Source of the DNA: Planctomycetota bacterium
GTDB taxonomy: Bacteria; Planctomycetota; Phycisphaerae; WQYP01
Length of the DNA stretch: 64,000 nucleotides
Assembly (NCBI GenBank): GCA_021808105.1
Contig: JAKBCC010000001.1
Span: 32,753-96,752, forward strand
Reading direction: 5' to 3'
Under the pieces are notes generated by a model that saw nothing but the letters and a program-made list of their open reading frames with translations, did not search any database and was not told the DNA's origin. Each line of letters begins with the position of its first letter. Position 1 is the stretch's first letter. The position numbers and the translations under genes are program-made. This document shows, piece by piece, positions 18,404 through 43,790 of the stretch.

Positions 18404-18452
18404 GTTAGGGTGTTGTAAGTTTTATTTTTTTAGCAACAAGGATAACGACCGC

Positions 18453-19586
18453 ATGACTAAAGAATCGCAAAGTGCAAAAGTAGAAGTCGCCGACTCCCCC
18501 CGCCGCGGAGGACCGCCGAAGATTCATAAATATTTTGAAGTTGTGACCAAGGTGGAGGGCAGCGATTTGCATATCAAGGCCGACGTACTGCCGCGGGTGC
18601 GCAAATCCGGACGTCTGGTTCCCACGACGGGCTCACCGATGACCAATGCGGAAATAGAAGCCATGGTCAAAGAAATGCTCACCGATGAGCAGTGGCATGA
18701 TTTCCTGCATCGCGGATCCCTGGATATCGCTTACGCTGTAACGCCCACCGAGCGATTCCGTGTCAACATTTTTCGCCAGCGCGGCATGGTCAGCATGGCG
18801 GCGCGGCGCATTAATCCGAAAATCCCCAATTTCGCGCAGTTGCACCTGCCCGAAGTTTTTGAAAAAATTGCGGAAAATGAACAGGGACTGGTCATGCTGG
18901 CGGGCATCACCGGCAGCGGCAAAAGCACCACGATTGCCGCAATGCTTCAACAGGTTAATGATCGGCGATCCTGCCATATTATCACCATTGAGGACCCCAT
19001 TGAATACACGTATGTAGATCAGAAGGCCTTCATTAACCAGCGCGAAGTCGGCCTGGATGTTGAAAGCTTTGAAATGGCGATTCGCTACATGATGCGTGAA
19101 GACCCCGATGTTATTCTGATCGGGGAAATGCGTGACCGCCTGACATTTCAGGCTGCGGTTCAGGCCACGGAAACCGGGCACATGGTTTTTTCCACCATTC
19201 ATGCCGCCAGCGCTCCGGGAGCGATCACACGCGTCCTGGAATTGTTTCCTCCGGATATGCACATGAACATGCGCCAGGCTATCGCCAACAATATGAAGGC
19301 GATTATTTTCCAGAAGCTTGTACCGGCCATTGATCCCGCCGTTGGCCGGGTACCGGTGGTGGAGGTCATGTTAAATTCACCTTCGGTCAGAAAATACATA
19401 CTTGAAGGCCGGGAAAATGAATTGACACAGGTCATCCGGTCGGAGCGCGGAGCCGGGATGATTGACTTTAATGATATGCTCTGCGAGCTGGTGGCCAGCG
19501 AAACCATTACCCATAAAGAGGCGTATATAGCCTCTCCCAATCCGGATGAATTGCGTATGCGCATGAAGGGTATTCGCACCAATTGA
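18453..19586 (+). CDS. pilT: type IV pilus retraction ATPase PilT/PilU family
   Basis: Walker A GITGSGKSTT, Asp box IEDPIE, Walker B ILIGEMRD, His box TGHMVFSTIHA. ATG at 18453 with AGGA ribosome-binding site. The longer ORF-track start adds a non-homologous extension. Confidence 0.9.
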   Translation: MTKESQSAKVEVADSPRRGGPPKIHKYFEVVTKVEGSDLHIKADVLPRVRKSGRLVPTTGSPMTNAEIEAMVKEMLTDEQWHDFLHRGSLDIAYAVTPTERFRVNIFRQRGMVSMAARRINPKIPNFAQLHLPEVFEKIAENEQGLVMLAGITGSGKSTTIAAMLQQVNDRRSCHIITIEDPIEYTYVDQKAFINQREVGLDVESFEMAIRYMMREDPDVILIGEMRDRLTFQAAVQATETGHMVFSTIHAASAPGAITRVLELFPPDMHMNMRQAIANNMKAIIFQKLVPAIDPAVGRVPVVEVMLNSPSVRKYILEGRENELTQVIRSERGAGMIDFNDMLCELVASETITHKEAYIASPNPDELRMRMKGIRTN

Positions 19587-19681
19587 CGCCCCCGGCGGAC
19601 TGGTTCCCGGGGATCAGGTACAGCGTCAAAGAGCATTCTGTATGGAAATCTCTGGCATAATTGGCCGGATCATGGTAAGTT

Positions 19682-24430: not shown

Positions 24431-25480
24431 TTGCGGGAGTATTTCGTGGGACCGCGTATATCGGTTTGTATCCCGACGCATAACCGTTCGGGTTTACTGC
24501 AGAAGACGCTGAAGAGTCTGGCTGCGGTGGAACCGTGCCCTGATATAACTTGGGAAATCATTGTCGTCGCGAATTGCTGCACAGATGATACGCTGCACGT
24601 CGTCGATGCACTCAAAGAGCACGTACCTGTTAAGTTGTTGATAATCGAAGAAGCGGACCTTGGTGTGGTGGCAGCGCGAAACCGGGCGTTGCGACATGCA
24701 CGCGGCGAGATCATCGCCTTTTTGGATGATGATGTGCTCGTTCGTCCGCTGTGGTTGTGTGAACTTGTAAAAGCTTTTGACTCCCAACCTGATATGCTTG
24801 TGGGCCGGGTTTATCTGGACTGGCATACATTGTCCCGTCCTACTTGGTTTGATGCCGGTATGGGCCAGTATCTCGCGCAGGTTGATCTCGGTGATGTCCC
24901 CATGCTTTTGCAGAATCCATTGGGGGCGGGGGCTAATCTGGCGATTACCCGGGACATGCTGCAACGTATTGGAGGATTCTGCTGTCCGTTGGAGCGCACG
25001 GGTAAACGCACGGCCGGGGAAGATACTGACTTGATAGCTCGAGCGATGCGCGCCAAGGGGCGTGTGCTGTATGCCCCAACCGTGACGGTGGATCACTATG
25101 TAGCGGCGGCAAGATTGACAGTCCGATATCTGAGAGGGGTCGCGTTTGATGTGGGCATGGCGGAGTACCTGATCGCGCCGAGTATCAGCGCAGGTGAACT
25201 GGCGGCAAATCTGGGCAAGAAAATTCCGCGTTTGCTTCAACGATCGGTCCGCTGGCTGCTGGTAGTGCCATTTAATCAGCGGGCGGCGGCTTGTTTGCGC
25301 GTCAGCTTGGCAAAAACACGCGGAAATATTGGGGGAATCATGCTTTGTGCCTGGCGTAGTATGTTGGGGCGCTCGGTGAGGCCGCCCGTTTTCGGAGACT
25401 TGCCCGAGTTGTCGGCCACCATTGCTTCCGGAAATTCAGCGGCTCCGGCGGACCAATTAATGGCCGGTACGCATGGTTAA
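24431..25480 (+). CDS. family 2 glycosyltransferase
   Basis: SVCIPTHNRSG..L..L.S....P......EIIVV.N...D.T and FLDDDVL (DXD). Confidence 0.85.
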   Translation: MREYFVGPRISVCIPTHNRSGLLQKTLKSLAAVEPCPDITWEIIVVANCCTDDTLHVVDALKEHVPVKLLIIEEADLGVVAARNRALRHARGEIIAFLDDDVLVRPLWLCELVKAFDSQPDMLVGRVYLDWHTLSRPTWFDAGMGQYLAQVDLGDVPMLLQNPLGAGANLAITRDMLQRIGGFCCPLERTGKRTAGEDTDLIARAMRAKGRVLYAPTVTVDHYVAAARLTVRYLRGVAFDVGMAEYLIAPSISAGELAANLGKKIPRLLQRSVRWLLVVPFNQRAAACLRVSLAKTRGNIGGIMLCAWRSMLGRSVRPPVFGDLPELSATIASGNSAAPADQLMAGTHG

Positions 25481-25583: not shown

Positions 25584-27887
25584 ATGACCTCAACAACCTG
25601 CACCGGTCATTGTAGTTTGCCCGTCCCAATTGGCGGGGCGTATGGTAAGGCGCGAGTGTGTATCGCATCACCCGATATTTCCGGCCCGATTAAAAACGGT
25701 GGGATTGGCAGCGCTTACACCGCACTGGCAATGGCACTGTCCCGCGGCGGACACGACGTAACTATTTTGTATCCGCATGGCACGCATAGCGAAGATGGCC
25801 CGATTACTCAATGGGTTGAATTTTATGCCGCGCATGGAATAAGATTTATCCCGCTTTCCTTACCGACCTGTACCACACTGGCAGGCAGCAAAGCCATGAT
25901 ACTTAGTTACACCGTTTTTGAGCATTTTCGCACGTGTGCTGCGCGCTATGATGTTATTCATTTTCCGGAATGGCTGGCTTTGGGTTACTACAGTATTCTG
26001 GGAAAAAAGCAGGGGCTGATCCTGCAAAACAGCACGATTGTCCTGGGCTTGCACAGCCCGCACCTGTGGAATATGCGGTACAACAATGAACCCGTACTCG
26101 ATGCAAATATCTTAACTCTGGATTTTATGGAACGCCAATGCGCAGCGTTGGCTGATGTGGTCGTCAGCCCCAGCGCATACATGATTCAGTGGTGCCAGGG
26201 GCAGGGGTGGACGTTTCCGCCTGATACGTATGTACAACCTTATGTGGTGCCTGTGGCGAAAGGGGCAACGAATCCAAACGCGGCGGCTCAAAATAAAATC
26301 ACGGAAATGGTCTTTTTTGGACGCCTGGATATCCGCAAGGGGTTGCACCTGTTCTGCGACGCGGTGGATCAATCCCGGCTATGCGACAGGCAGGATGTTG
26401 CCATCGTATTTCTGGGCCGGTCTGTGGACGTCAACGGATTAAACTCTACCGAGGTCATTCGCCGGAGAAGTAAAAACTGGCGGTGCCCGGTGAAGCTGAT
26501 AACGGACTTTGGCCGCGATGAGGCGGTAGAGTATTTGCGCCAGCCGGGGCGGTTGGCGGTTATTGCATCCTTGGCGGACAACTCCCCCAATACCGTTTAT
26601 GAATGTCTTTCCAACAGGATTGCCTTTATTGCCGTGCGTACCGGCGGCATTCCGGAAGTTATCGCACGCGAGGATTGGCCGCACGTGCTTTGCGATCCGG
26701 ACGTTTCCGCGTTGGCCACGCATCTGGAACATGCAGTGGAAAATCCCCCCGCTTGCGCGCATCCCGCCATGGACTTTGCGGCCAATGAACAGACTTGGAA
26801 TCGGTGGCACGCGCATTTTGCGGAGGCGGACACCGTGCGTGAAAAAGCGGTGGCCAGCGGTGCCTACATCGCTGCCGGCTCTGCCGGCGGTGGGGCGCGT
26901 CGAGCATCCGCAGGGCACGTGCCCGACCGCAGCGAAATGGGCGATGGCGATCCAGCCGCGGAAACATCTGCGCAAGCTCCGCTGCTAACCGTGTGCTTGG
27001 TGCAACAAGGTACGGGGACCCAGACCCTGCGCGCCATCCACAGCCTCCAAACCCAGGATTATTCCTCCACGCAGGTTATTCTGCTGCTTAAATCAACCGG
27101 TGGGGCCGATACGGGCAGCCTGCCGCCGCAAGAGAAAATGCAACTCATTAACCGCGGTTGGAAAATTATTTGCTTTGCCGGGTCGGATGGCAAATCTCCC
27201 TATGATTCAGCAGTGCAATATGCTCAAGGCACGGTGCTGCTGCTGATGGATGACAGCGGCAGTCTGGTGCCCCATGCGGTGCGCACGCTGGTAAACGCGA
27301 TGCGGGCAAGTGCCGTGGATATTCTGACCGGTGCCCAGGGCCTGTTTGATGAGGCCCCCACACCGGATTACAGTTCTGCACCGCGGAAAATTCAGTTATT
27401 TTCCGGCTGTCCGGCGGCGGGATTGTTCAGAAATGTTTTCGGCGGCCATGCGGTATTAATAACATCGGCAGCATTTAAGGAGCTGGGCGGATTTAGCGCG
27501 ACAACACAGGAATCGCAGGAAATTTCAAATTCTGCCGCCTGGTGGGCGTTCTACGCGCGGGCAGCCCTGTCCCCCTTGAGGATGCAGTGTTTGCCGATGC
27601 CGGTGCTGTGGGCTTGCGTGGCGGAACAGCCCGATACGGGGGCACCGGGGATTGACTATTTATTGGCGGATATTTACCGGGAACAACTGGATCCGAAAAT
27701 CTCTCTTCTGGCGCTGTTTGCCCGTGGTGTGAAGCTCAAGGCCGATATCGCCCTGCCCCATTGGAAGGGAGATGGGCCTGTGCGTATCGGGTTGTTGCGG
27801 GAGATAGCCCAGACAATGAAGGACCTTCGCAGAAAAACCCGGCGAATTCGCTATATGTTCAAGGGAAAATCGCCGCCTGGGAATTAA
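25584..27887 (+). CDS. two-domain glycosyltransferase (GT4-like N-terminal, GT2-like C-terminal)
   Basis: GGIGSAYTALAMALSRGGHDVTIL (GT4 N-terminal subdomain) and a later LLTVCLVQQ...LLMDDSG GT2-like region. Confidence 0.7.
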   Translation: MTSTTCTGHCSLPVPIGGAYGKARVCIASPDISGPIKNGGIGSAYTALAMALSRGGHDVTILYPHGTHSEDGPITQWVEFYAAHGIRFIPLSLPTCTTLAGSKAMILSYTVFEHFRTCAARYDVIHFPEWLALGYYSILGKKQGLILQNSTIVLGLHSPHLWNMRYNNEPVLDANILTLDFMERQCAALADVVVSPSAYMIQWCQGQGWTFPPDTYVQPYVVPVAKGATNPNAAAQNKITEMVFFGRLDIRKGLHLFCDAVDQSRLCDRQDVAIVFLGRSVDVNGLNSTEVIRRRSKNWRCPVKLITDFGRDEAVEYLRQPGRLAVIASLADNSPNTVYECLSNRIAFIAVRTGGIPEVIAREDWPHVLCDPDVSALATHLEHAVENPPACAHPAMDFAANEQTWNRWHAHFAEADTVREKAVASGAYIAAGSAGGGARRASAGHVPDRSEMGDGDPAAETSAQAPLLTVCLVQQGTGTQTLRAIHSLQTQDYSSTQVILLLKSTGGADTGSLPPQEKMQLINRGWKIICFAGSDGKSPYDSAVQYAQGTVLLLMDDSGSLVPHAVRTLVNAMRASAVDILTGAQGLFDEAPTPDYSSAPRKIQLFSGCPAAGLFRNVFGGHAVLITSAAFKELGGFSATTQESQEISNSAAWWAFYARAALSPLRMQCLPMPVLWACVAEQPDTGAPGIDYLLADIYREQLDPKISLLALFARGVKLKADIALPHWKGDGPVRIGLLREIAQTMKDLRRKTRRIRYMFKGKSPPGN

Positions 27888-28389: not shown

Positions 28390-28422
28390 CCGGTATTATT
28401 GGATGGTAATCGGGAAACCTTA

Positions 28423-30588
28423 ATGAAACCATTTTGGCGATTAATGCGGGGCGCATGGCCCTACCGGTGGCAGATCGTATTCTCGTTTTTGTGTGCCATC
28501 GGCGTGAGCTTGTCTTACGCCTCGGGGGTAGCCACGCTTTATCCCGTCATGAAAATATTCATGGGGGCCGAGGGGGTGCATGGCTGGCGGGATCAGACCA
28601 TTGCCCAGCAACGCCTGCATATTCAAACATTGGGGCTAAACGCCAGCGCGCGCAAGGGAAAACTCGCCATCAGCATTCTTGGCGTTGGTGCCAAGGCCCA
28701 GACGCCTTTGCATAGCATTCAAATTGGCGATCAAATTCGTAGCGTGCAAATTGTGTCTCCTACCGGGCAGACAATGGGGTCAGCTGATTCCTGGCTCAAA
28801 ATGATGTCTCTATTAGCCAACGCCAAGCCCGGCAGCACCGCGCAATTAACCGTAACCGCCAATGATGGCGCTGCACCGCGAACCCTGGCCGCCACACTTC
28901 CGCCGCTGAAATGGAATACACGCCTCTGGGCGTCCGCGGTGGCGGCTATGCCGCATCGCCGAATCTGGAGCCTGTTTTGGGTGGTGATGGTCTTTATCGG
29001 TTTGTGCATTGTGGGCAGCACGTTCCGGTATCTTCAGAGTTTCATAAGCGGTGTGGTCGCCAATAAAGTCATTATTGATTTGCGCCGCAGGCTCTTTAAT
29101 CACATCCTGGACTTGCCACTGTCTTATACCGCCAACCGAGGCACGCATGACCTAGTTAGCCGGGTTACCCTTGATACAGAGTTTGTCGCTGGTGGGCTGG
29201 GGACGGTGCTGGGAAAAGCGATTTTGGAGCCAACAAAATCGCTTGGCGTCGCGATTCTGGCGGTCATGGTGGATTGGCAGATGTTTCTGGCCATGCTGAT
29301 TGTATTGCCCACGATGGGCGTGGTGATCCGCAAATATGGCAAAAAAATGATGACCATGGGGGGCATGCAACTGCTGGGCTGGTCGGGAGTGGTGGATATC
29401 AGCAGCGAAGCCTTGGGTTCCATTCGGGTGGTCAAGGCGTATTCCGGCACCGGCTACGAGCGGCGCCGCTTTGCCACGGTGAACCGGGATCTGTTTCGGC
29501 ACATTCGGTATATTCAACATTACACGTCTCTTTCGCGTCCGCTGTTTGAGACACTTTCCATTATTCTCGTAAGCATTCCTCTGATGTGGGCGGCGGAACT
29601 GACATTCCATCATTTCATTGGGCGGGAGCAGTTCTTCCTTATGCTCGCTTGCCTCATTGCCATTTTCGAGCCCATGCGCAAACTCAACGATATCAACAGC
29701 CAAGTGCAAATGGCCAACGCGGGTGCTAGCCGCTGCTTTGAAATTTTGGATTTGCCTAAGGAACCGAATCTTTCCCCGAATTTGCCGAAGCTCGCGAGGC
29801 ACAGCCAGACCGTTCAATTTGAGCATGTCTCGTTTAAATATCCTGGCCACGATGAATGGGTCTTGCAAGATATTGACCTGAACGTCGTACGCGGAAAAAT
29901 GGTGGCGGTGGTTGGGAGCAATGGTTCGGGTAAAACCACGCTGCTTTCGCTTTTGCCGCGGCTGTATATTCCCACCGAAGGGCGAATTCGCATTGATGGC
30001 GTGGATACGGCCACGGTATCAGTAAATTCTCTGCGCCGGCAGATTGGCCTGGTCACCCAAGAAGCAGTTTTATTTTCCGATACCATCTATAACAACATCG
30101 TGTACGGGATGAGGCAGGCCACCAATGAGCAGGTCATGGAAGCCGCCCGGCGCAGTTATACCGATGAATTTGTCCGCGACTTGCCGCAGGGCTATCAGAC
30201 GCAGGTGGGGCAGGGCGGCACCCGGCTTTCGGGCGGGCAGCGGCAGCGGGTTGTGCTGGCACGAGCGATCCTGCGTAATCCATCAATTCTGATTTTGGAT
30301 GAAGCCATGAGCCAGGTGGATTCGGACAGCGAAGCGAAAATTGCCTCAGCGCTGGAGGACTTTATGCAAGATCGCACGACGTTTATTATCGCCCATCGTT
30401 TCAGCACAGTGATGTCGGCGCATGTGGTGGTATGTCTGGAAGCCGGCCGGATCGTGGGCTATGGCACGCATCAGGAACTCTTTGCGAGCTGCGTGCCTTA
30501 TCGGCGGTTGTATGATACGCAGCTTCTGGTTCGCGATGGCGCGCCGCTTGAAAAAGCACTACCGTATGCCGTTGGCGCACTGGAATAG
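28423..30588 (+). CDS. ABC exporter, fused TMD-NBD (MsbA/PglK-like) with a large TM1-TM2 loop insertion
   Basis: Six TM helices then an NBD with Walker A GSNGSGKTT, signature LSGGQRQR and Walker B ILILDE. About 130 aa inserted between TM1 and TM2. Confidence 0.85.
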   Translation: MKPFWRLMRGAWPYRWQIVFSFLCAIGVSLSYASGVATLYPVMKIFMGAEGVHGWRDQTIAQQRLHIQTLGLNASARKGKLAISILGVGAKAQTPLHSIQIGDQIRSVQIVSPTGQTMGSADSWLKMMSLLANAKPGSTAQLTVTANDGAAPRTLAATLPPLKWNTRLWASAVAAMPHRRIWSLFWVVMVFIGLCIVGSTFRYLQSFISGVVANKVIIDLRRRLFNHILDLPLSYTANRGTHDLVSRVTLDTEFVAGGLGTVLGKAILEPTKSLGVAILAVMVDWQMFLAMLIVLPTMGVVIRKYGKKMMTMGGMQLLGWSGVVDISSEALGSIRVVKAYSGTGYERRRFATVNRDLFRHIRYIQHYTSLSRPLFETLSIILVSIPLMWAAELTFHHFIGREQFFLMLACLIAIFEPMRKLNDINSQVQMANAGASRCFEILDLPKEPNLSPNLPKLARHSQTVQFEHVSFKYPGHDEWVLQDIDLNVVRGKMVAVVGSNGSGKTTLLSLLPRLYIPTEGRIRIDGVDTATVSVNSLRRQIGLVTQEAVLFSDTIYNNIVYGMRQATNEQVMEAARRSYTDEFVRDLPQGYQTQVGQGGTRLSGGQRQRVVLARAILRNPSILILDEAMSQVDSDSEAKIASALEDFMQDRTTFIIAHRFSTVMSAHVVVCLEAGRIVGYGTHQELFASCVPYRRLYDTQLLVRDGAPLEKALPYAVGALE

Positions 30589-30688
30589 AACTGACGTGTC
30601 CGTTGGAAATCCTGTGTCGGCTCTGGCAGCTTGCGTTTCTGTGTATTCGGGGAAATTATTAACTTGCAACACCTTTGGAGAATCGTTC

Positions 30689-33600
30689 ATGGCCGGCAAT
30701 ACTGAACTACCGTTCACCGGAGAGCGCTACGTCCCGAGTCTTCATGGTTATGTCGAACTTGAACACCGCCACCGATACCACCTCGCCAGCCGATTGGCTG
30801 CCGGAAAGCGCGTGCTCGATATTGCCTGCGGGGAAGGCTACGGCTCTGCAATATTGGCTCAAACGGCCCGACATGTGGTGGGAGTTGACATAGAAGAATC
30901 AGTGGTCGCCCACGCGCATGCTAAATACGCCAGCGAAAACACAATGTTTCGCGTTGGGAGATGCGAGAATATCCCCGTTCCGGATCATTCAATTGATTTG
31001 GCGGTGAGTTTTGAAACGCTTGAGCACACCCGCGACCAGGACCAGATGCTCGCAGAGTTTCGACGTGTGCTCGAGCCGGGAGGTGTATTGATTCTATCCA
31101 GTCCAAACCGATCTTATTTCCTCAATGCCAACGCGCCACCAAATCCTTTTCACGTGAAGGAACTTGGATTATTCGAGCTGGATAGTCTCATGCGAAATAA
31201 CTTTAAACATGTGCGAATTCTCGGCCAGCGCGTGGCTTACGGTTCCGTGGTTGCTCCACTGCAGGAGAAACTCACCCAGATTGAGTTGTTTGACACCAAC
31301 GGACGTCCGATCTACGAGCACGAGAGTATGGAGCATTGGTGGATATATTTTATTGTGATTGCTTCCGATGGCGTACTTCCGGAATCGGTTTCGGGAATGC
31401 TCGGTTCCGCACTCCGCGAGGAATATTTCGACGGGCTCATCGGCCAACTGCAACGCGAGGTTGCTGAAAGTCATGCGTCGATTGCGACACTGCAGGCGGA
31501 ACCTGGACGGATGACCGACGATCGCGATTCGGCCATTAAATCCCTTGAAGGGCAGGTAGCATTATCCAGATCAAACGAGCAGCAGCGAGCGGCCGAGCTT
31601 GAAACTGCGCGGTCAGAGCTTGCTGACATCAAACGCCATTTGGCCGCTTCGCAGACTTTGGCCTCCGATCGCGATTCGGCCGTTAAATCTCTGGAAGCAC
31701 AGTTGGCATTATCCAGATCAAATGAGCAGCAGCGAGCGGCTGAGCTTGAGACTGCGCGGTCAATGTTTGCTGAACTCAATCGCCAGTTGACCGCTGCGCA
31801 GGCGCTGTCCGGCCAGCGTAATTCGGTGATCAAGTCCCTGGAGGCATTATTGACCGCCTCGGAAAAGCTGTCATCCGATCGTGATTCGGCGATCAAATCT
31901 CTGGATGCGCTTTTAGGTGCCTCTAAGGCCAATGAGGAGAGGCAAAAGGCCGAAATCCATGCGTTGAATTCACGGTTCGCTGACCTTGCGGGGCAGTTGG
32001 CTGTGTCCAATCTAAATGGGGAGCAATATGCCAGGGAACTCGCAAAAATTAATCGGCGATGGACCGAGAAATTGCGACTGCGAATCAGGGCCTTGCGGAA
32101 GCAAACAAAGCCTTTACGTTATTTCCTGATGGGAAAACAGTTTCTAGCAGACGGGTCGCGTGATTCTTGGTATACCCCTGCCGCTTCCCAAAAGACCGAA
32201 GTGCGGTCGGTCGTAGGGTTCATCAAAGCCATCCGCCGGAAGACCCGGCCGGTGCGGCACCTGCTGATGGGAAAACCAGTTAAGTTGAAAAATGCCCGGT
32301 CGAATATTACTCCACCACAATTTAACATCGAAGATAGAATTGCGACGCAACCGACGTCCGAAATAATAAAGCACCCAGTGCCATCGACCTTGATAGGTCG
32401 GCGGCGTGCTGCCCTTGCAAGCGATGTTGAGCGCCGGATTAAAGATGCCCAGAAGCCCGTGCCGATTGGCACGAGAAGCGTCGTCGGCCCCACGATATCT
32501 ATCGTCATGCCGGTTTACAATACGCCTCCGGCTCTGCTGGATCTGACAATTCTTTCAGTACGCGCTCAGGAGTACCCTAACTGGGAGTTATGTATTTGCG
32601 ACGACGGGTCCAATTCCGGAGATGTCGCGGACACTGTTGAGCGACACGCGAAACAAGACCGGCGTATCAGGTTCCTACGCCAGGAAGTAAATAAGGGAAT
32701 AAGCGCGGCCAGCAACACGGCACTGGCATTGGCCAGCGGTGAGTTTGTCGGCCTCCTGGATCATGACGATGTTCTCTTACCCGATGCAATGGCACAGGTG
32801 CAAGCCGCCATTGCCGAATTTCCCGACGCCGATATGCTCTACACCGATGAGGCCATTATTAATGAGGATGGCTCGGTCCAGCGTGTATTTATCAAGCCGG
32901 ACTGGAGTCCGGCGCTCTTGACCTCCGTCATGTATACGGGCCATTTCTCGGTGTATCGAAAATCCCTTTTGGAGGGGGTCGGCGCATTTCGTTCCCGGTT
33001 CGACTTCTCCCAGGATTATGATCTCGCACTCCGGGCCAGCGAGGCGGCGCACCACATCGTACACGTGCCTCATATCGCTTATGCCTGGCGGGCGATCAGT
33101 GGATCGGCGGCGGCTGGGGGGAAGCCCTTTGCCAGAGCGACAAATATTGCAGCCCTTACCGACGCCCTGCAGCGACGTTCATTGCCAGCGCACGGCGACG
33201 CGTTGCCATACTCAAACCGCGCCTTCTTTGATAGAAAATCTCTCTCGGATTTCCTATCCATTATTATCCCTTCGGACAACGACCAGATGATAATCGAAAC
33301 CCTGGATCTGATTCGGGGCCTTTCAACTTATAAAAATTATGAAATACTTGTGGTTACCAAATCCGCGATAGTCGGCCGCATACAGTCACCTGGCGGCGGC
33401 CCAAATATTCGGTATGTGAAGTATGATAAACCGTTCAACTTTTCCGACAAATGCAATGCTGGAGCCGCTCAAGCGCGAGGCAATGTTTTGGTCTTCTTTA
33501 ACGACGATGTGCGAGTGATAACCCCGGACTGGATTGAAACGCTTTTGGAGTGTCTGCACCTTGGAGGCGTGGGAGCAGCGAGTCCCAAGATGATTTATGA

Positions 33601-35182
33601 CAACGGCCTGATTCAGCATGCCGGAATGGTTGCCGGCGTACGCCGGCTTGTCGGTACCGCATTCCACTGTCTGCCCAGCGATAGCGGCGAATATTTTAAT
33701 ATGGCACAATCGACACGGGAGGTCTCCCTGCTCTCGGGTGCGTGTCTGGCAATTCCAGCCGATGTATTCCGTGATGTTGGCGGCTTTGACGCAAAAAACA
33801 CGCCCGTAGCCCATTCGGACGTTGACTTATGCTTACGCATACGTGCTCGGGGGCTGCGATGCGTATACACACCTCACGCAACCCTGCGGCATACCGGGCA
33901 CGTATCCATCGGTTCGGTTGAGAAAGCGGCAACCAGGAAACACGTGCGGGATAAAGCGGACATCTTTCTGCTTCGCCGCTGGTGCCGTGAAATCAGCTAC
34001 GATCCGTTCTTTACAAAGCATATGCGGGACCTTGTTTACCTTGATTCGCCGGAGAACTACCAGGTTCACGCGCCCCTGATCGCTGCCGAGCATGGCGGAA
34101 CTGATATCTTGCTTATCGCTCACGATCTCTCGCAAAGTGGCGCTCCCCGGGCACTGGTAGATATGGCCCGGATATTGAAGGAGGCTGGAAATTTCGTTGT
34201 GGTCACCTCTCCGACGGATGGTCCCCACCGAGATACTCTTCTGGGTATGGGGATTCCCGTAATCATCGATGCGCACGTATTAACCGGCCACGATACGGTG
34301 GTCGATTTCGGAAAAAATTTTGATATTGTGATTGGCAATACCGTGCTGAGCTGGCGGGATATTAAGCGTTTATCTGAATATACCCGCACATATCTCTATA
34401 GCCTGGAGTCTAATTTGATTCCCCAACAATTCTTGCCACTTCCGGGTTTCACCGACGCGATACGGGGGGCCAGTGGGGTCTGGTCGGTAACTGAGCGGAC
34501 CGCACGGCATCTGCGTACGTCTCGTGATGATATCGATATCCTGCCCAATCCGGCAGCAGTGATAGGATCTATCAAGGGCGACCGGCCTCCGGGCTACAGG
34601 GAACAAGTTCGAATTGTGTTGATTGGGTCGCTGGAGTCACGAAAGGGACAGGATATAGCAGTAGAGGCGATAATGCGAATGAGTGAGCAACAGCGCCGGC
34701 AAATGACCTTGGCGATGTTCGGGCGGCGGCATGACCCAGATTTTGTTGCAAGTCTGATGCAGAGGATTGAAGGGGTTTCAGGTATTGAATTGGGGCCCGA
34801 ACTCGCCCCTTCAGATTGCCTGAAAGAAATCCGACAAGCGGATATTGTCTTACTTGCATCACGTGACGACACCCTGCCACTTGTATCACTGGACTGTCTC
34901 GCTCTGGGGCGGGTATTGGTATGCACGCGCGAGACTGGAACAAGCGAATTTTTAGAGGACGGACTATCAGGTTTCATTGCTGAAAATGCTTCCCCTGAGG
35001 CTATTGCGGACGCCCTCACAAGGGCGTTGGCCCAGCGACAGCACTGGGCGGATATCGGCCGGCGAGGTCGTGAGATTTGTGAGCGAAATTTTACATACGA
35101 GATATTCCAAAAACGATTGCTTGGCTACATTGGCTGCCCCGATGCTCTGTCAAGCCTGCAAACGGGGGTTGATCGGCCATAA
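30689..35182 (+). CDS. giant multidomain glycan synthase: class I SAM methyltransferase, coiled coil, 2x RKxTRPxRYxxMxK motif, GT2, GT2, GT4
   Basis: The ATG at 30689 has a GGAGA ribosome-binding site; the upstream in-frame stretch overlaps the ABC gene. MT motif I VLDIACGEGYGS. GT2 domains start at ISIVMPVYNTP and LSIIIPSDND. GT4-like C-terminus. Confidence 0.8.
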   Translation: MAGNTELPFTGERYVPSLHGYVELEHRHRYHLASRLAAGKRVLDIACGEGYGSAILAQTARHVVGVDIEESVVAHAHAKYASENTMFRVGRCENIPVPDHSIDLAVSFETLEHTRDQDQMLAEFRRVLEPGGVLILSSPNRSYFLNANAPPNPFHVKELGLFELDSLMRNNFKHVRILGQRVAYGSVVAPLQEKLTQIELFDTNGRPIYEHESMEHWWIYFIVIASDGVLPESVSGMLGSALREEYFDGLIGQLQREVAESHASIATLQAEPGRMTDDRDSAIKSLEGQVALSRSNEQQRAAELETARSELADIKRHLAASQTLASDRDSAVKSLEAQLALSRSNEQQRAAELETARSMFAELNRQLTAAQALSGQRNSVIKSLEALLTASEKLSSDRDSAIKSLDALLGASKANEERQKAEIHALNSRFADLAGQLAVSNLNGEQYARELAKINRRWTEKLRLRIRALRKQTKPLRYFLMGKQFLADGSRDSWYTPAASQKTEVRSVVGFIKAIRRKTRPVRHLLMGKPVKLKNARSNITPPQFNIEDRIATQPTSEIIKHPVPSTLIGRRRAALASDVERRIKDAQKPVPIGTRSVVGPTISIVMPVYNTPPALLDLTILSVRAQEYPNWELCICDDGSNSGDVADTVERHAKQDRRIRFLRQEVNKGISAASNTALALASGEFVGLLDHDDVLLPDAMAQVQAAIAEFPDADMLYTDEAIINEDGSVQRVFIKPDWSPALLTSVMYTGHFSVYRKSLLEGVGAFRSRFDFSQDYDLALRASEAAHHIVHVPHIAYAWRAISGSAAAGGKPFARATNIAALTDALQRRSLPAHGDALPYSNRAFFDRKSLSDFLSIIIPSDNDQMIIETLDLIRGLSTYKNYEILVVTKSAIVGRIQSPGGGPNIRYVKYDKPFNFSDKCNAGAAQARGNVLVFFNDDVRVITPDWIETLLECLHLGGVGAASPKMIYDNGLIQHAGMVAGVRRLVGTAFHCLPSDSGEYFNMAQSTREVSLLSGACLAIPADVFRDVGGFDAKNTPVAHSDVDLCLRIRARGLRCVYTPHATLRHTGHVSIGSVEKAATRKHVRDKADIFLLRRWCREISYDPFFTKHMRDLVYLDSPENYQVHAPLIAAEHGGTDILLIAHDLSQSGAPRALVDMARILKEAGNFVVVTSPTDGPHRDTLLGMGIPVIIDAHVLTGHDTVVDFGKNFDIVIGNTVLSWRDIKRLSEYTRTYLYSLESNLIPQQFLPLPGFTDAIRGASGVWSVTERTARHLRTSRDDIDILPNPAAVIGSIKGDRPPGYREQVRIVLIGSLESRKGQDIAVEAIMRMSEQQRRQMTLAMFGRRHDPDFVASLMQRIEGVSGIELGPELAPSDCLKEIRQADIVLLASRDDTLPLVSLDCLALGRVLVCTRETGTSEFLEDGLSGFIAENASPEAIADALTRALAQRQHWADIGRRGREICERNFTYEIFQKRLLGYIGCPDALSSLQTGVDRP
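31517..31990 (+). repeat. in-frame tandem repeats, period 147 nt (49 aa), encoding the coiled coil
   Basis: Copies at 31520-31666 and 31667-31813 are about 90% identical over the first 100 nt. Further degenerate copies reach about 31990. Peptide unit DRDSA[IV]KSLE.Q.ALSRSNEQQRAAELETARS. Confidence 0.8.
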
Positions 35183-36611: not shown

Positions 36612-36877
36612 GCCGCAAAAGCTGGGAGAAGCGAAACGGGGACGCAGCTAGTTTTTGAGGATAGCAAGACAAAACGGCCGCCCGAATTTGGCATTGGCAG
36701 CATCCGAAGCAGCGTCCGAAGCTTGAGACCATTGGTTATAGCTTCTACACTTTCACGAATTATTTTGGCTTCAACTACGCCATATTTTTTAGCGGTGGTT
36801 AAAAACAATCCGTTCAATGGCTGAAATTCCACCACACAGTGGTTGATATTCAACCGGTTAACGGATATAATTCCAGC

Positions 36878-38125
36878 ATGTTGGTTCAACGATACATAAC
36901 ACCGCTTGTCGAAATCGCACTGCTTGATACACCTGCCGTTTATATCCAAGGGCCTCGGCAGGCCGGCAAAAGTACGCTTGTGCAAATGCTTTCGGAAAAG
37001 ACGGGGCGGCGTTATCTGTCGCTTGATGATGCTGCCACGCTCGCCGCTGCCCGTACTGATCCGGGCGGCTTTCTCGCACGATTTGACGGGCCGATCGCGA
37101 TTGACGAAGTGCAGGCGGCACCCGAACTGGGCCGCGCGATTAAAGCCGCTATAGACCGGGACCGCAAACCGGGGAAATTTTTGCTGACCGGCTCTGCCGG
37201 CATCATGGTTATTCCTGAGCTGGCTTTACAGCTTGTGGGGCGGATGGAACTGCTTACTCTCTGGCCGTTGGCGCAACGCGAAATCACCGGCACGCACGGT
37301 TCGATGATTGATGAACTATTGGCCGAAGCGTTTGTCGGTCTGCCCATTAACAGCGAAGGGCGGCAAAAGTTGCTTTCACGCCTGATCGCCGGCGGTTATC
37401 CCGAGCCGCTGCAACGCACAACTCCGGAATCAAAATCGCGGTGGTTTGATTCCTATGAAACCACCATTCTCCAGCGCGATGTGCGTGACTTGGCCAATGT
37501 GGAAAACCTGGGCATATTTCCCAACCTGCTGCGACTGCTGGCAGGCCGCGACATGTCCATTCTGAATGTTGCCGATGTGGCGCGAACGCTTTCACTTCCA
37601 CAAACTACGGTGAAGCGATATTTGGCGGTACTGTCCGGTTTGTTTTTGACCGGTTCGCTTCCCGCCTGGCACCGCAATGCCACAGCACGGCTGGCCAAAG
37701 CCCCGAAGGCCATGCTGGTAGATACCGGCTTGGCCTGTCACCTTATGGATTTGGATATGGATCGGCTGGAGGCCAATTCGACCATGGCCGGTCACCTGGT
37801 GGAAAATCTGGCGGCCATGGAACTGATCAAGCAGGCGGGATGGGCAAAAACAAGATCTGAATTTTTTCATTTTCGCACGCTTTCAGGGGCAGAAGTGGAC
37901 CTCGTGCTGGAAGATCGCCGGGGAAGGGTTGTCGGCATAGAGGTAAAATTTTCCCAGACCCTTTCCAAAACAGATTTGCGCGGTATGGAGGTACTTCGCC
38001 AAGCCGCCGGCCAAAATTTTTTACGCGGCATTATTTTTTACAGCGGTCATGAAACGCTTCCCTTCGGTCCGGATTGCTGGGCGGTTCCGATAGATGCACT
38101 TTGGAACGGCGTTAAATCATCCTGA
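36878..38125 (+). CDS. AAA_14/DUF4143-type ATPase
   Basis: Walker A GPRQAGKSTL and C-terminal SGAEVDLVLE..VVGIEVKFS motif. Paralog of 47683-48954. Confidence 0.8.
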   Translation: MLVQRYITPLVEIALLDTPAVYIQGPRQAGKSTLVQMLSEKTGRRYLSLDDAATLAAARTDPGGFLARFDGPIAIDEVQAAPELGRAIKAAIDRDRKPGKFLLTGSAGIMVIPELALQLVGRMELLTLWPLAQREITGTHGSMIDELLAEAFVGLPINSEGRQKLLSRLIAGGYPEPLQRTTPESKSRWFDSYETTILQRDVRDLANVENLGIFPNLLRLLAGRDMSILNVADVARTLSLPQTTVKRYLAVLSGLFLTGSLPAWHRNATARLAKAPKAMLVDTGLACHLMDLDMDRLEANSTMAGHLVENLAAMELIKQAGWAKTRSEFFHFRTLSGAEVDLVLEDRRGRVVGIEVKFSQTLSKTDLRGMEVLRQAAGQNFLRGIIFYSGHETLPFGPDCWAVPIDALWNGVKSS

Positions 38126-38990: not shown

Positions 38991-41900
38991 TCATGCCCCG
39001 GCATGCATCAACCCCAGGGCTGGAATTTTGGATTTATGGGCACTGCCGTTGTCTGCATTATGTCGGTGGGGAGGCTCAAGGACATCGGCCAGATCAGGGT
39101 GCCGGCGGTAGTCAGGGTAATCACCCGTGTGAAGGGATAACATCTGGTAGGTTGACTGGCGCACCATCTCTATCATGGATTGCGTGTGCGCATCCACGGG
39201 AAGTTTTTGAAGCCAGAACATTTGCACTTTCAGAACCTCACGAAATAGATTGATCGCCCTGGCTTTAAGCGTCACGCTTTGGCTGTGACGGCGGTGATGA
39301 TTCAGCGGATCGGGCACGAAACAAATCCAGCCGTCCTGCAGGAGATTCAGATAAAACATCCAATCGCCGGCATGCCGGAGGTCCTGCATCATCGGACGTA
39401 ATTCCGCAGTGATGGGTTTGCGGAACAACACCGCGCTGGCGTTAGGAATGGTGTTTTTGATAATCAGCGAATCCATGATTTCCAGAGGTCCGGGGCGTAA
39501 ATAGGCGCTTTGCCATTTATCCGCATGAACCTCCCGCGTGTACTGAAGATAGTCATTGCCCAGGATGGCACCCCGCTCATCCATCATCTTTGATTGTGCG
39601 TAACTCAACACGGCGTCGGGATGACGGAACCCGTCTACCAGGCGGCCCAACAATGTCGGCTCACACAGATCATCCGCTTCCGCTATCCAGATAAGTTCCG
39701 ATGCGCATTCATCAATTCCGCGCAGCCATTGTGCAAAGACCCCCTGGTTTTGACGGTTTTCAATAATACGGAAAGGAACAGTGCCGCGGGAAAGAATCTC
39801 GCGCGCCACTTCCACGCTGTTATCTTCCGAGGCATCATCGAGAAAAATAATTTCCGCCGGGCGATAGGTCTGCTGCAGAATGCTTTCCAGGCGTTGGGGA
39901 AGGTAATGGGCGTAATTATAGTTAGGCACTACTACGCTGACGGCTGGAAATGTGCAACCCAGTTCTTTTGCCAGGTCACAGGCATAGATAGTGTGGTCAA
40001 AATGCTCCTTAATTAAAAGCGGACCCGCCTGGGCCACGTAGCGTCGGCCTGCGGAATCAGCCAGGAAGTCAATAACGGCCCGACCCATGGTGCGGGTATC
40101 CTCATAGGGCACCAGACGTCCCAGCCGGGGTGTGACGATTTGCGTAAATCCGCCCGCGGAAGCAAATCCAATCACCGGCAGGCCCGCATGAAATGCTTCC
40201 AGGACCACACTGGGAAAAGGATCTTCACGCGAGGTCATCAAGTACAGATCAGCCGCGGCAAAATACCGGCTGACATCGCGCGTGCGCGGAACAAAATGAA
40301 AATGCTCCGGAGTGGGTGCCGCGCGAAGCAGTCGTTTCACGATAATCTCAAAATCCTGGTGCAGGTCGCCTACCCATACCAGATGAATAGCGGGATTCCC
40401 CGCCAGAGCGGCATTACCGGCCTGGATGAATAAATCCGGTCCCTTGCGCCGGTCTCCAAAACCGGCGGCCAGCACCAGAGGGGCATCTGCCGGAATGCCC
40501 AGTTCTGCCCGTACATCTTGGCGAATCGTATGGCGGTCCTTCAGAAATTCATTGGGCGTATACATTCCCTGCGCCTTGATGAGCACTTTTTCCGGCGGAA
40601 TTTCCGACAGCGACAGAAAAGAGTCGCGCACAATCGTGGAGGCGAAAACCACGCGATCCACAGCCTTGGCCGTTATGCCTAAATTCTCGGCCTCGCCAAA
40701 TTGCCGAATCACTCCGGCCATTTCATGCACCAGCCAGAGTACTTTAAATCCGTGCCCCTTTAAGTCACGGGCGATTTCGCCGGACACCACCGTGTTACAA
40801 ATGGCTCCGAAGTAAGATTGCGATTTCAGTTCTGCCAAGAGCGCCGTACGCTGCTGGCTGGATAGCTGCCACCAGCGATAAATTTCTCCGCATTGGGCGA
40901 ACTGGTCTTCCAGATCACCTTCACCCAGCGTGATGATCGCAAGAGTGCAACCCAGTTGTCGGGAAAGATCTCGGCATACATTAAGAATGATAAGTTGCGC
41001 ACCATGCGGATGACAGTCGTGCGTCACCACCACGAGTTTGCGCGGCAGTTGCCCGGCGGGGAATTGTTGCAACGCCTCAGCGGTGGCCTGCAGCCAAGCA
41101 TACCCATAGCGCCGATCCGGCTCAAGATACGCACCTTCCGCCCATTCATTCCAGGCGTTGATAAAAACAAATTGTTCCCCGGCTGGAAGGTTTTTGGAAG
41201 TATATTCGCACGCACTATTGAGCCATTGGCGGTACAGGGCAGGTGTTGCGCCGGCATAGGTTACGCCATGGCCTGGTTTGCGGGATTCATTATCCCATCC
41301 CGGGCAAACGCCGCGGAACAGACGATAAGGTGGCTGAGGCAGCTCCTGACATTTTTCGATCAGATTAGGGTAGTCGTATACCGTTCCGGCATAGTTTGAA
41401 TTCAGGCCCTGAATGTCGGATGTGATAATCCGCGTGTCAATATTGTTGGGGGGAAATTCAATGGCATAATCAAAACCGATGGCAGCGGGATCGATGCGGT
41501 CAAAGGACTGGGTATAGGCGATAACTATTTCACCTATGCCGCAGTCCCGGCAATATTGCCGCCAGCGCCGCGCCGTGGCCGCCGGATCAGGCAGAAGGGA
41601 GGGGCGATAAACAACCAGCAAGGGACGCCCCTCAACGCGGATGTAACGGGAATCTGTAAAAAGCGAAGTAACTTCGTGGATAAACGCGAGGTCATCTTCG
41701 GCGCTGTGCTGCTGTTGGATCAGAACGTCGTTCTCCAGGCCATCCCAGCACCGCGACCAGGATTCATTGGCCCAGCAGATACAGAACGGAAAATCCAATT
41801 CCGGACGCCTAAGCATTTGCTCCAGTGGATGTTCCAACAGTTTTCGTCCATTAAACCAATAATAGTAGTAACAGAAGCCCTGGATGCCGTATTGCCGCGC

Positions 41901-43790
41901 CAGTTCAATCTGCCGCTTCTGAACATCCAGCACACGCAGATCATAAAATCCCAATTCCCCGGGCAGGTGCGGCTGATAATGCCCCGCAAACTGCGGCTGG
42001 GTTTTAGATACGTTGGTCCATTCTGTAAATCCTTTTCCCCACCAGACATCGTTTTCGTGAATGGGATGAAACTGCGGCAAATAAAAGGCGATGGCCCGGA
42101 TGCGCGTATCAACGGCCATCCATTGGGATTCATTCACATAGTCCGCGGTGGCCCCGGACATTCTGGTCGGTGCCACCGTGCCTGTTGGGCGCATCCGGGC
42201 AGGCGCTTCGGGAGCAGCGGCAAAGGAAGAGGATCGCGGCAGTTCGGTGTGCGGAAGCGGCTTTCTCATGATCCAGTAACGCAAGGGGCGGGTTTTTTTA
42301 CGCAGTTGTCGTAGCGATTCAAGGAACGTCAGAGTTTTCCGTGCTGGGAAATTACTGGCTTGATCGCATTGCTCCATGCGTGCCGCCGCCAGGGATTTGT
42401 TCATGAAGAAATAACGTATCGGGCGCGTTCTTTGGCGCAATATTTTGAGCCGCCCGCGCAAGGTTCGAGCTTCGCGCACGCGAACCAGCTCGGCGATCCG
42501 CAGTTGACGCTCTGTCAACGCCGCCTGGAGTCCGGCGATCGTTTCGTCGCGGTGTGACAACTGTGCGGCGATTTCTGACACCTGCGTTTGCAACATGGCA
42601 ATACGATTGTTGCGTTCGGTTAAATCCTGTGTGAGCGCTGCGGCAGATTGCCGGGTGCCGGCGAGAAGATCGGTGAGTTCAACGATATGATGCGATCCAT
42701 CCGCTACCGCCGCGTTCAGGCTGCCGAGGGCCTCCTCGCACTGGGCCAGGTTTTCGGTGCTTTCAGCCACCTGTTTTTGCAACGTGGAAAGATCGTGTTC
42801 GCGCTGGGCCACCTGGCCGGCAAGCACGGCGGCGATCTGATCCCGCTGGGCAACCTCCAGTCGAAAATGAGTGGCTTGTGTGTCCGAAACATCCAAGGCT
42901 CGCCGCACGTTCATAAACCGTTGATTGCGTCCACGGATCATTTGGGCGGCTTTAAGTGCGGTATCGATGTGCCCGCGCTCAAGGCTCACATTTTCCGCGG
43001 GCAGCCCAAAAGGATAGTCGAAGGCCATGAAATCGACGGCGTAAAGTTTGCGAAGAAGCTCGATGCTGCGGGCGGAAAAAAATAGGGGGGAATAGGGGAG
43101 CAGACTCTCGTTGTATTTCTGCTGTGCGGGATTCCTAAAGGCCGCCGGGCCGATACGATCAGCGAGATTTTTCCAGAGGCTTTCCGGGTCTTCCATTTTG
43201 GCAATTTGTGAGTAACGCACCTTGCCAATGCGGAGAACGTGGCTCTGGGGTGTCCAATGCGGGTCAATAATATCAGGCCATTGTGTCGCATGCAGATATT
43301 CCAGAAAGCTCTGAATATTGTGTGCAATATCGTCAACGGATTGAATTTCCTGACGATAAAAATCAGCGTTGATGAATGGATCTGCCTGCAAGGGCTCGCG
43401 CAACAGAATTTTAGATTGCCAGGCGGAAAAGATTCTTGTATAGGGATTACGCACCAGAGCAAAGCGAAAAAAATCCGGTGAAAGCACTATTTTTTTCAGG
43501 TCCACAGGGTCCAGGCCGGTCACGTTTGGACAGGCTTTATAAAAACTGTCATGAATGGTCAGACGGGGGTCGGTTTCATAACTGCGCAGACTGTCGTAAT
43601 TGAAAAATTCCGGCGCATCAAGCTCCGCAAACCACCATTTCAGGGATGTACAGGCCACCTTTGGGGTGGAAACATAATGCAGCAGATACCGGTAAGATAC
43701 CAGAGATCCCACCGACAAACTGGTCCAATCCGTATCGGTCATGGTATCAAATAATTCGCTATGAAAATTATCCATCTGAACACGCCCCAT
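38991..43790 (-). CDS. giant multidomain glycan synthase: sulfotransferase-like domain, coiled coil, 2x RKxTRPxRYxxMxK motif, WbsX-like GT, GT4, GT2
   Basis: N-terminal RNPYTRIFSAWQSK (sulfotransferase-like). Coiled coil at about aa 300-440. Motifs LRQRTRPIRYFFMNK and LRKKTRPLRYWIMRK. WbsX-like GFCYYYYWFNG. GT2 VSVVVPNYNYAHYL...FLDD. Confidence 0.75.
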   Translation of the reverse strand: MGRVQMDNFHSELFDTMTDTDWTSLSVGSLVSYRYLLHYVSTPKVACTSLKWWFAELDAPEFFNYDSLRSYETDPRLTIHDSFYKACPNVTGLDPVDLKKIVLSPDFFRFALVRNPYTRIFSAWQSKILLREPLQADPFINADFYRQEIQSVDDIAHNIQSFLEYLHATQWPDIIDPHWTPQSHVLRIGKVRYSQIAKMEDPESLWKNLADRIGPAAFRNPAQQKYNESLLPYSPLFFSARSIELLRKLYAVDFMAFDYPFGLPAENVSLERGHIDTALKAAQMIRGRNQRFMNVRRALDVSDTQATHFRLEVAQRDQIAAVLAGQVAQREHDLSTLQKQVAESTENLAQCEEALGSLNAAVADGSHHIVELTDLLAGTRQSAAALTQDLTERNNRIAMLQTQVSEIAAQLSHRDETIAGLQAALTERQLRIAELVRVREARTLRGRLKILRQRTRPIRYFFMNKSLAAARMEQCDQASNFPARKTLTFLESLRQLRKKTRPLRYWIMRKPLPHTELPRSSSFAAAPEAPARMRPTGTVAPTRMSGATADYVNESQWMAVDTRIRAIAFYLPQFHPIHENDVWWGKGFTEWTNVSKTQPQFAGHYQPHLPGELGFYDLRVLDVQKRQIELARQYGIQGFCYYYYWFNGRKLLEHPLEQMLRRPELDFPFCICWANESWSRCWDGLENDVLIQQQHSAEDDLAFIHEVTSLFTDSRYIRVEGRPLLVVYRPSLLPDPAATARRWRQYCRDCGIGEIVIAYTQSFDRIDPAAIGFDYAIEFPPNNIDTRIITSDIQGLNSNYAGTVYDYPNLIEKCQELPQPPYRLFRGVCPGWDNESRKPGHGVTYAGATPALYRQWLNSACEYTSKNLPAGEQFVFINAWNEWAEGAYLEPDRRYGYAWLQATAEALQQFPAGQLPRKLVVVTHDCHPHGAQLIILNVCRDLSRQLGCTLAIITLGEGDLEDQFAQCGEIYRWWQLSSQQRTALLAELKSQSYFGAICNTVVSGEIARDLKGHGFKVLWLVHEMAGVIRQFGEAENLGITAKAVDRVVFASTIVRDSFLSLSEIPPEKVLIKAQGMYTPNEFLKDRHTIRQDVRAELGIPADAPLVLAAGFGDRRKGPDLFIQAGNAALAGNPAIHLVWVGDLHQDFEIIVKRLLRAAPTPEHFHFVPRTRDVSRYFAAADLYLMTSREDPFPSVVLEAFHAGLPVIGFASAGGFTQIVTPRLGRLVPYEDTRTMGRAVIDFLADSAGRRYVAQAGPLLIKEHFDHTIYACDLAKELGCTFPAVSVVVPNYNYAHYLPQRLESILQQTYRPAEIIFLDDASEDNSVEVAREILSRGTVPFRIIENRQNQGVFAQWLRGIDECASELIWIAEADDLCEPTLLGRLVDGFRHPDAVLSYAQSKMMDERGAILGNDYLQYTREVHADKWQSAYLRPGPLEIMDSLIIKNTIPNASAVLFRKPITAELRPMMQDLRHAGDWMFYLNLLQDGWICFVPDPLNHHRRHSQSVTLKARAINLFREVLKVQMFWLQKLPVDAHTQSMIEMVRQSTYQMLSLHTGDYPDYRRHPDLADVLEPPHRHNADNGSAHKSKIPALGLMHAGA

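Follow-up and report, generated by a model that had tools for sequence, protein, structure and literature searches.

The window analysed here is a stretch of 64,000 nucleotides (nt) of a Planctomycetota bacterium (contig JAKBCC010000001.1, positions 32,753 to 96,752). Near its middle lies a gene for a glycan synthase in which a methyltransferase domain, dependent on S-adenosylmethionine (SAM), is separated from three glycosyltransferase (GT) modules by a helical spacer containing in-frame tandem units of 147 nt. It is likely that an old in-frame duplication built the coiled-coil spacer of a ruler-type synthase, and that the repeats provide slow, heptad-quantised tuning of spacer length, being too diverged to serve as a frequent switch. 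The gene and its parts are listed below in window coordinates.

30689..35182, + strand: host gene, a single-polypeptide glycan synthase of 1497 amino acids (aa), with methyltransferase, helical spacer, GT2, GT2 and GT4 (open reading frame (ORF) list, translation, Pfam)
30773..31153, + strand: class I SAM-dependent methyltransferase domain (Pfam Methyltransf_11/25/31/23, E 1e-16 to 1e-24, residues 118-244 of the 1586-aa ORF)
31418..31519, + strand: lead helix (EEYFDGL...) and shortened leading repeat unit (ESHASIATLQAE-PGRMTD) (unit maps; AlphaFold2 (AF2) helix 247-269, break 270-276)
31520..31666, + strand: unit U1, 49 aa or seven heptads, DRDSAIKSLEGQVALSRSNEQQRAAELETARSELADIKRHLAASQTLAS (Tandem Repeats Finder (TRF), unit dissection)
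31667..31813, + strand: unit U2, 49 aa (TRF, unit dissection)
31814..31876, + strand: U3, a partial unit of 63 nt, 21 aa or three heptads (unit dissection, unit maps)
31877..32023, + strand: U4, a degenerate unit of 147 nt or 49 aa (unit dissection, ortholog comparison)
32084..32143, + strand: basic motif 1, IRALRKQTKPLRYFLMGKQF, directly after the coiled coil (ortholog comparison; AF2 helix 444-481)
32222..32281, + strand: basic motif 2, IKAIRRKTRPVRHLLMGKPV (ortholog comparison; AF2 helix 508-526)
32498..33097, + strand: first GT2 (GT-A) module (Pfam Glycos_transf_2, E 4.8e-37, residues 690-892 of the 1586-aa ORF; chondroitin synthase in the PDB, E 1e-25)
33413..33940, + strand: second GT2-like module (second stretches of Pfam Glycos_transf_2, Glyco_trans_2_3 and Glyco_tranf_2_5, residues ~998-1173)
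34103..35074, + strand: C-terminal GT4 (GT-B) module (Pfam Glyco_trans_4_5, Glycos_transf_1 and Glyco_trans_1_4, residues 1228-1551)

The ORF called mechanically begins at 30422 and has 1586 aa. The host gene most likely starts at the ATG at 30689, because the ATP-binding cassette (ABC) gene upstream stops at 30588 and independent gene calls agree on the 1497-aa product, which has been called in identical form on eight contigs. The PDB matches of its methyltransferase are generic, with WbdD appearing only at E ~5e-4 to 1e-3 (~21 bits, about 37th in the list), and Pfam finds no kinase domain in the window protein; we rejected the idea that the protein belongs to the WbdD sequence family on these two grounds. 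Its position in the architecture suggests that the methyltransferase terminates chains at the spacer end away from the membrane, where it would cap the non-reducing end of the glycan. On the other side of the coil, the two copies of the basic motif (IRALRKQTKPLRYFLMGK and IKAIRRKTRPVRHLLMGK) hardly vary from ortholog to ortholog. The first of them may be a membrane-proximal amphipathic element, because of its analogy to the C-terminal region of WbdD (PMC11231755). The motif right after the coil reads [RK]-x-T-[RK]-P-x-R-[YF]-x-x-M-x-K and is present in this strict form in 33 of the 137 proteins examined, with a related form, S-W-R-[LI]-T-x-P-L-R-F, in other family members; a post-coil motif also occurs in homologs P0013, P0024-26, P0041 and others. 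We found no annotation for it, and it may serve for docking to the membrane or the exporter.

With Tandem Repeats Finder, the array shows up at 31519-31846 with a period of 147 (1.9-2.2 copies with 79-86% matches and without indels, at scores of 433 and 403), in frame 0 of the ORF 30422-35182 (+). The original prediction had placed in-frame 147-nt tandem units at 31520-31666 and 31667-31813, and both TRF and the dissection of the units bear out the place, the period and the frame. Its description of the copies as near-identical does not hold: U1 and U2 are 83% identical in DNA (122/147, with 25 of the 147 positions differing) and 71% identical in protein, 20 codons differ (six synonymously and 14 non-synonymously), and the longest exact run common to the two is 17 nt. 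Of the degenerate copies expected to follow, U4 is indeed one, at 54% nucleotide and 41-43% aa identity to U1 and U2, and it is the most conserved unit across orthologs; the stretch between, 31814-31876, is a partial unit of 21 aa. At an offset of 49, 31 of 40 residues are identical, against 10.7 +/- 0.7 in shuffled sequences, and the repeat is thus far above chance. A leading unit ahead of U1 (ESHASIATLQAEPGRMTD) is shortened in the window and has its full length of 49 aa in the ortholog P0004; the P-G of its EPGRMTD is a helix break in the AF2 prediction. The DNA of the whole region, 31418-32023, recurs base for base in six independently assembled contigs from two sources. An antisense ORF of 179 aa (31471-32010, - strand) overlies the repeats. 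We judged that it most likely arises as a side effect of the repetitive coding sequence, since it is the + frame that is conserved as protein, in six lineages.

The core formed by U1 to U4 comprises 169 aa, contains no proline and is rich in A, L, S, E, R and Q. LIVMF residues fill 71% of one heptad column and 33% of the one that lies three residues further along, and a single hydrophobic register continues through all units. The hydrophobicity power of the core peaks at periods of 7.0, 3.5 and 2.33, and the power observed at 3.5 was reached by 46 of 2000 shuffles. AF2 predicts a single unbroken helix over residues 277-438 of the 1497-aa protein (162 residues, predicted local distance difference test (pLDDT) 61-70), which matches U1-U4; a shorter helix (247-269) precedes it, and helices 444-481 and 508-526 follow over the two basic motifs. 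This model was run as a monomer from a shallow alignment of nine sequences and is poor overall, with a mean pLDDT of 49 and values of 24-56 in the methyltransferase domain. The repeat region is best read as a heptad coiled coil, and the spacer, a predicted continuous alpha-helix of ~160-200 residues, most likely forms a parallel coiled coil of ~24-30 nm. The proposal that each 49-aa unit corresponds to seven heptads agrees with a region that is heptad-periodic, free of proline and predicted to form one long helix, and the conversion of 49 residues into about 7 nm is arithmetically correct.

Searches for relatives yielded five full-length orthologs with 70-88% aa and 79-88% nucleotide identity and a sixth, P0006, in which the N-terminal domain is replaced; one member of an ortholog cluster carries the label 'Phycisphaerae bacterium'. 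No length variants were found within lineages in the six ortholog clusters formed at 90%. In the cluster of the window protein, 1497 aa is the sole length; within each of the other five, linker length is the same in every full-length member, and the differences are limited to point substitutions and start-codon calls. Likewise, gain or loss of a whole 147-nt unit was not seen in the six assemblies or the six ortholog clusters. A scan of genome contigs with the ortholog alignment recovered no close genomes, only distant matches of at most 41% identity (loci L001-L080) driven by generic GT2 motifs, and scans of metagenomes with the linker protein and the linker alignment found no relatives. A protein search with the linker alone gave no matches, not even to itself, and is uninformative, likely owing to compositional filtering of coiled-coil sequence.

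Between lineages, the spacer does vary. Measured from EEYFDGL to KINRR, the linker has 209, 202, 195, 247 and 199 aa in P0001 to P0005, respectively, with no break in the colinearity of the catalytic domains. In sequence, these domains diverge more slowly than the linker, whose length stays within 195-247 aa. Three lineages that keep the unit order of the window have simple deletions, namely 7 aa in U1 (P0002), 14 aa in U2 (P0003) and 14 aa in U1 (P0006). Each removes a whole number of heptads and leaves the hydrophobic register unbroken. P0002 lacks exactly 21 nt (7 aa, ETARSEL) between two copies of GAGCTTG that lie 21 nt apart inside U1 (31595..31622, +), and a 42-nt deletion sits between two copies of CTGCGC that lie 42 nt apart. 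To judge by these flanks, the 21- and 42-nt deletions fit microhomology slippage and not whole-unit recombination. Two other orthologs are rearranged: P0004 combines a full-length first unit with a 77-aa chimera (U4-like head, U1/U2-like tail), and P0005 carries a U4-like/U3-like chimera with a net loss of 10 aa and a phase shift.

The relative age of the units can be read from their 81-nt heads. Orthologous pairs (U1 of P0001 with U1 of P0002, and U2 with U2) are 91-93% identical, and paralogous heads within a genome are 88-89% identical. Because the orthologous heads are more alike than the paralogous ones, the U1/U2 duplication is older than the split of the 84-88% identical orthologs, and the units were not homogenised afterwards. 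P0003 departs from this pattern, with its own two unit heads 94% alike and 85-88% identical to those of orthologs, which indicates one local gene-conversion event in that lineage. Compared with 30689-35182, P0006 (L091:753-5408) keeps the coiled coil and all three GT modules, at 74% identity. Its N-terminus has a sulfotransferase-like domain in place of the methyltransferase (HRSGTS motif; Sulfotransfer_3, E 1e-3, below the cut-off), and by this comparison P0006 has exchanged the cap domain and kept ruler and polymerase.

A wider family of methyltransferase-GT2 homologs puts the window protein in context. Among ~115 homologs, the distance from the methyltransferase to the GT2 is typically 150-500 aa. 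Strong internal repeats are present in 46 of 98 linkers, and in 31 of these 46 the period is a multiple of seven (14, 21, 28, 35, 42, 49, 56, 70 or 77), compared with ~7 expected by chance. In P0025, three 49-aa units are 63-80% identical in DNA. The proteins P0060 (1739 aa) and P0142 (1753 aa), which are 99.2% identical, differ solely by one 14-aa unit, ERDTQIAGLSQSVQ, present in four versus five copies. The DNA of the extra unit in P0142 is identical to that of the neighbouring unit at 40 of 42 positions, and the rest of the gene is 98.7-99.96% identical to that of P0060; the P0142 gene lies in a canonical Wzm/Wzt(+Wzt_C) cluster. Because of this one-unit difference, we conclude that in-frame gain or loss of heptad-multiple units occurs in the family when copies are short and nearly identical. 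In one 90% cluster, P0056, P0143 and P0144 have identical linkers, and the N-terminal region of P0144 is different, with another SAM-methyltransferase-like sequence. This may mean that the terminator has been exchanged once more, here between proteins that are very closely related.

Three genes of the cluster lie upstream of the synthase on the same strand.

24431-25480, + strand: upstream GT2 gene of the cluster (Pfam)
25584-27887, + strand: upstream GT4 gene of the cluster (Pfam)
28399..30588, + strand: ABC exporter with fused transmembrane and nucleotide-binding domains, MsbA/HepA-like (Pfam ABC_membrane and ABC_tran; NCBIfam MsbA and HepA matches, below every cut-off)

The exporter and the synthase are kept as a pair in the orthologous loci (L081-L086, L090, L091), and the order of the upstream GT2 and GT4 genes is the same in L090, the locus of P0005. 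The exporter has an N-terminal extension of ~190 aa without annotation. It is a fused half-transporter and not a Wzm/Wzt pair, and neither Pfam nor NCBIfam detected a Wzt_C-like cap-binding module in it. A small RHH-like ORF lies just upstream of the exporter in orthologous contigs. Further upstream in the window, two consecutive genes for T2SSE-family secretion or pilus ATPases (18387-21496, +) precede the glycan cluster and follow a citrate synthase and a PIG-L deacetylase gene.

A second giant enzyme of 1599 aa is encoded downstream at 38991-43790 (-). Its N-terminal Sulfotransfer_2 domain is followed by a helical linker of ~150 aa with weak SMC-like matches and by WbsX, GT4 and GT2 domains, and the twin basic motif is again found after the linker (LKILRQRTRPIRYFFMNK / LRQLRKKTRPLRYWIMRK). 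This protein has the look of another terminator-ruler-polymerase, one whose ruler is shorter and whose cap would be a sulfate. The region of this gene is flanked by two AAA_14/DUF4143 ATPase genes, at 36839-38125 (+) and 47683-48954 (-), and genes for PIN and HepT-like toxins are found nearby in orthologous contigs; these flanking and toxin genes suggest a mobile or variable neighbourhood between the two synthase genes. The same part of the window encodes an 809-aa ORF (44118-46547, +), which has no match in Pfam or NCBIfam, and a stand-alone methyltransferase (46679-47422) that belongs to the cluster.

By analogy to known rulers, the synthase could work as follows. The GT modules would polymerise a lipid-linked glycan at the membrane, and the twin basic motifs after the coil would mark the membrane-proximal end of the spacer. 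Carried at the distal tip of the coil, the methyltransferase would cap a chain as soon as that chain had grown far enough to meet it, and the length of the coil would therefore set the modal chain length. The repeats would then be both an evolutionary record and the raw material of slow, heptad-quantised length tuning. The events of this kind that were observed, all of them between lineages at species level, are the microhomology deletions of 21 and 42 nt, the chimeric units and the local gene conversion. Several points weigh against this explanation. It is by analogy that the methyltransferase is assigned the part of terminator and the coil that of ruler, and the exporter is not the canonical Wzm/Wzt with Wzt_C, so the coupling of capping to export may differ. 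The AF2 model, a low-confidence monomer, is silent on oligomeric state and helix orientation, and the second core position of the heptad is weakly hydrophobic (33% LIVMF). The net changes in two lineages are not heptad multiples (+38 aa in P0004 and -10 aa in P0005, the latter with a shifted phase). Finally, few strains were sampled, and length variants in the minority would go unnoticed in consensus assemblies.

The original prediction had gone further and proposed that the units would be a built-in mechanism of variation, in which slippage or recombination would add or remove 49 residues. Read as an active device, this would happen frequently, so that populations differ in glycan length. The units are tandem, in frame and compatible with heptads, units have recombined over evolutionary time (the chimeras in P0004 and P0005, the gene conversion in P0003), and one family member, with copies at 95% identity, is truly polymorphic by a single unit (P0060/P0142). 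At the window locus itself, such a device is very unlikely. DNA that is 83% identical with at most 17 exact nucleotides is a poor substrate for whole-unit homologous recombination or slippage, the duplication is older than the ortholog split, the linker DNA is the same in six independent assemblies, and copy number, the comparison by which the proposal was to be judged, is constant both there and within the six ortholog clusters. P0025, with its three 147-nt units, likewise has one length in all five members of its cluster. We thus rejected a contingency or phase-variable locus on the divergence of the units and the lack of length polymorphism in the six assemblies and six ortholog clusters. 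What comparison supports of the proposal is that the ruler can change length without loss of frame, as relatives vary mostly by heptad multiples and P0060/P0142 by one unit; a change by a whole 147-nt unit, as foreseen here, is the part that fails in the comparisons made. A broader version is possible, if doubtful: coiled-coil rulers might generally be built of heptad-multiple tandem units, slippage or recombination might be a widespread means of quantised change in chain length, and U1 and U2 could occasionally recombine. The one-unit difference between P0060 and P0142 and the 7- and 14-aa steps among orthologs would then be examples. An assembly artefact, with repeats collapsed or expanded during metagenome assembly, was considered since the window apparently comes from a metagenome-assembled genome, and its probability is negligible: the units differ at 17% of positions and are thus resolvable by short reads, and six independent assemblies from two sources contain the same DNA.

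Two other explanations accept the repeat and dispute what the helix does. In one, the helical region would serve only for oligomerisation or as a scaffold, for instance to dimerise the enzyme or to dock the exporter or partner GTs. The length of the helix would then have no bearing on that of the chain, and the methyltransferase would decorate internal sugars or act on another substrate. A generic class I methyltransferase with no specific relation to WbdD, an exporter without a recognisable cap-binding module and the stand-alone methyltransferase in the cluster are all compatible with it. We nevertheless regard it as rather unlikely, as the order of a modifying enzyme, a long coil and polymerase GTs is the signature of ruler systems (PMC11231755), the modifying domain has been swapped from methyltransferase to sulfotransferase-like on an otherwise conserved coil and polymerase, simple indels preserve the heptad phase, and the linker keeps to 195-247 aa despite diverging faster in sequence than the catalytic domains. 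In the other, there would be no parallel coiled coil, and the region would form a stable single alpha-helix or an antiparallel helical hairpin, in which case the length-per-residue argument fails. The low confidence of the monomer-based AF2 model and the 33% LIVMF in one of the two heptad core columns leave room for it. Single-alpha-helix domains are typically far richer in the charged residues E, K and R, which make up 38 of the 169 core residues (22%), and because of this low content we rejected a single-alpha-helix domain on composition. In addition, one hydrophobic register spans all units, and the core has neither proline nor a turn-like break, with the AF2 helix unbroken over 162 residues, all of which makes this explanation as a whole highly improbable. 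The reading of the repeats as an old duplication that built, and slowly tunes, a coiled-coil ruler is the one we retain.

Coiled-coil rulers are the accepted means by which ABC-transporter-dependent pathways set the length of their glycan chains, and to our knowledge they have been studied almost only in Enterobacteriaceae, through engineered insertions and deletions. The locus and its relatives make up a natural series of ruler lengths, comprising orthologs with linkers of 195-247 aa, a 99%-identical pair with four versus five units, and swapped cap domains. Such a series could be used to test how chain length depends on ruler length, and whether heptad-quantised change in repeats drives length variation of surface glycans. 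For the window itself the lesson is modest: the repeat serves as a stable structural component in an enzyme of recognisable class, which here occurs in a little-studied phylum and stands beside an exporter of non-canonical type.

The arrangement of terminator, coiled coil and polymerase is a documented strategy of ABC-transporter-dependent glycan assembly (PMC11231755), and the claim that the window encodes a ruler-type synthase agrees with the presence of this layout. At one end of the protein stands a chain-modifying domain, the SAM methyltransferase (E 1e-24). A predicted extended coiled coil with a proline-free core, one register, spectral peaks and an AF2 helix lies between the predicted terminator and polymerase modules, and the GT2, GT2 and GT4 modules, whose polymerase activity is predicted, are all C-terminal to the coil. 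The link to an ABC transporter consists of an adjacent and syntenic exporter, which is a fused MsbA/HepA-like half-transporter without a Wzt_C match; the family member P0142 has Wzm and Wzt_C.

Among characterised enzymes, ORF6 of Klebsiella pneumoniae O7 is similar in layout: its coiled coil is central, between a methyltransferase(-kinase) at the N-terminus and two GT2 modules at the C-terminus (PMC11231755). As in the window protein, a methyltransferase stands at the N-terminus, in ORF6 as part of the terminator, and ORF6 works in an ABC-transporter-dependent pathway with additional stand-alone GTs. It differs in its extra kinase and CBM-like domain before the coil, its two GT modules and its Wzm/Wzt transporter, and the likeness is one of layout; the window protein has no kinase by Pfam, three GT modules (GT2, GT2, GT4) and a fused MsbA/HepA-like exporter. 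WbbB of K. pneumoniae O12 and Raoultella terrigena also combines terminator, coil and two GTs in one protein, with an N-terminal and membrane-distal terminator (PMC11231755). Its terminator is a beta-Kdo glycosyltransferase (GT99) and not a methyltransferase, and no WbbB chains are among the PDB sequence matches of the window protein. The same source describes WbdD (Escherichia coli O9a/O8, K. pneumoniae O3/O5), in which a coiled coil carries a methyltransferase, joined in O9a by a kinase, and is followed by a region that binds the membrane and recruits the polymerase. As is predicted for the window protein, a methyltransferase terminator sits on a coiled coil with a membrane-side region behind it; in WbdD, the polymerase WbdA is a separate protein and the coil is C-terminal and trimeric. 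According to PMC5082667, this trimeric coil keeps the catalytic domains ~20 nm off the membrane, and insertions into or truncations of the coil raise or lower the modal chain length. In these two sources (PMC11231755, PMC5082667), an effect of coil length on modal chain length is shown only for WbdD and WbbB. No internal tandem repeat in WbdD was reported in the literature searched. Related in sequence are P0142 and P0060, which belong to the same protein family as the window protein (E ~1e-79) and share with it a methyltransferase domain and a repeat-built coil, followed by a T-x-P-L-R motif; a GT2 and further domains come after it in P0142 and P0060. Their units have 14 aa, are 95% identical in DNA and occur in four or five copies next to a canonical Wzm/Wzt, compared with units of 49 aa and 83% identity in the window. 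Judged against these systems, the window protein is ruler-like by architecture, with three GT modules and an exporter other than Wzm/Wzt, and the synthase is a recognisable member of the known class of ruler-type enzymes.

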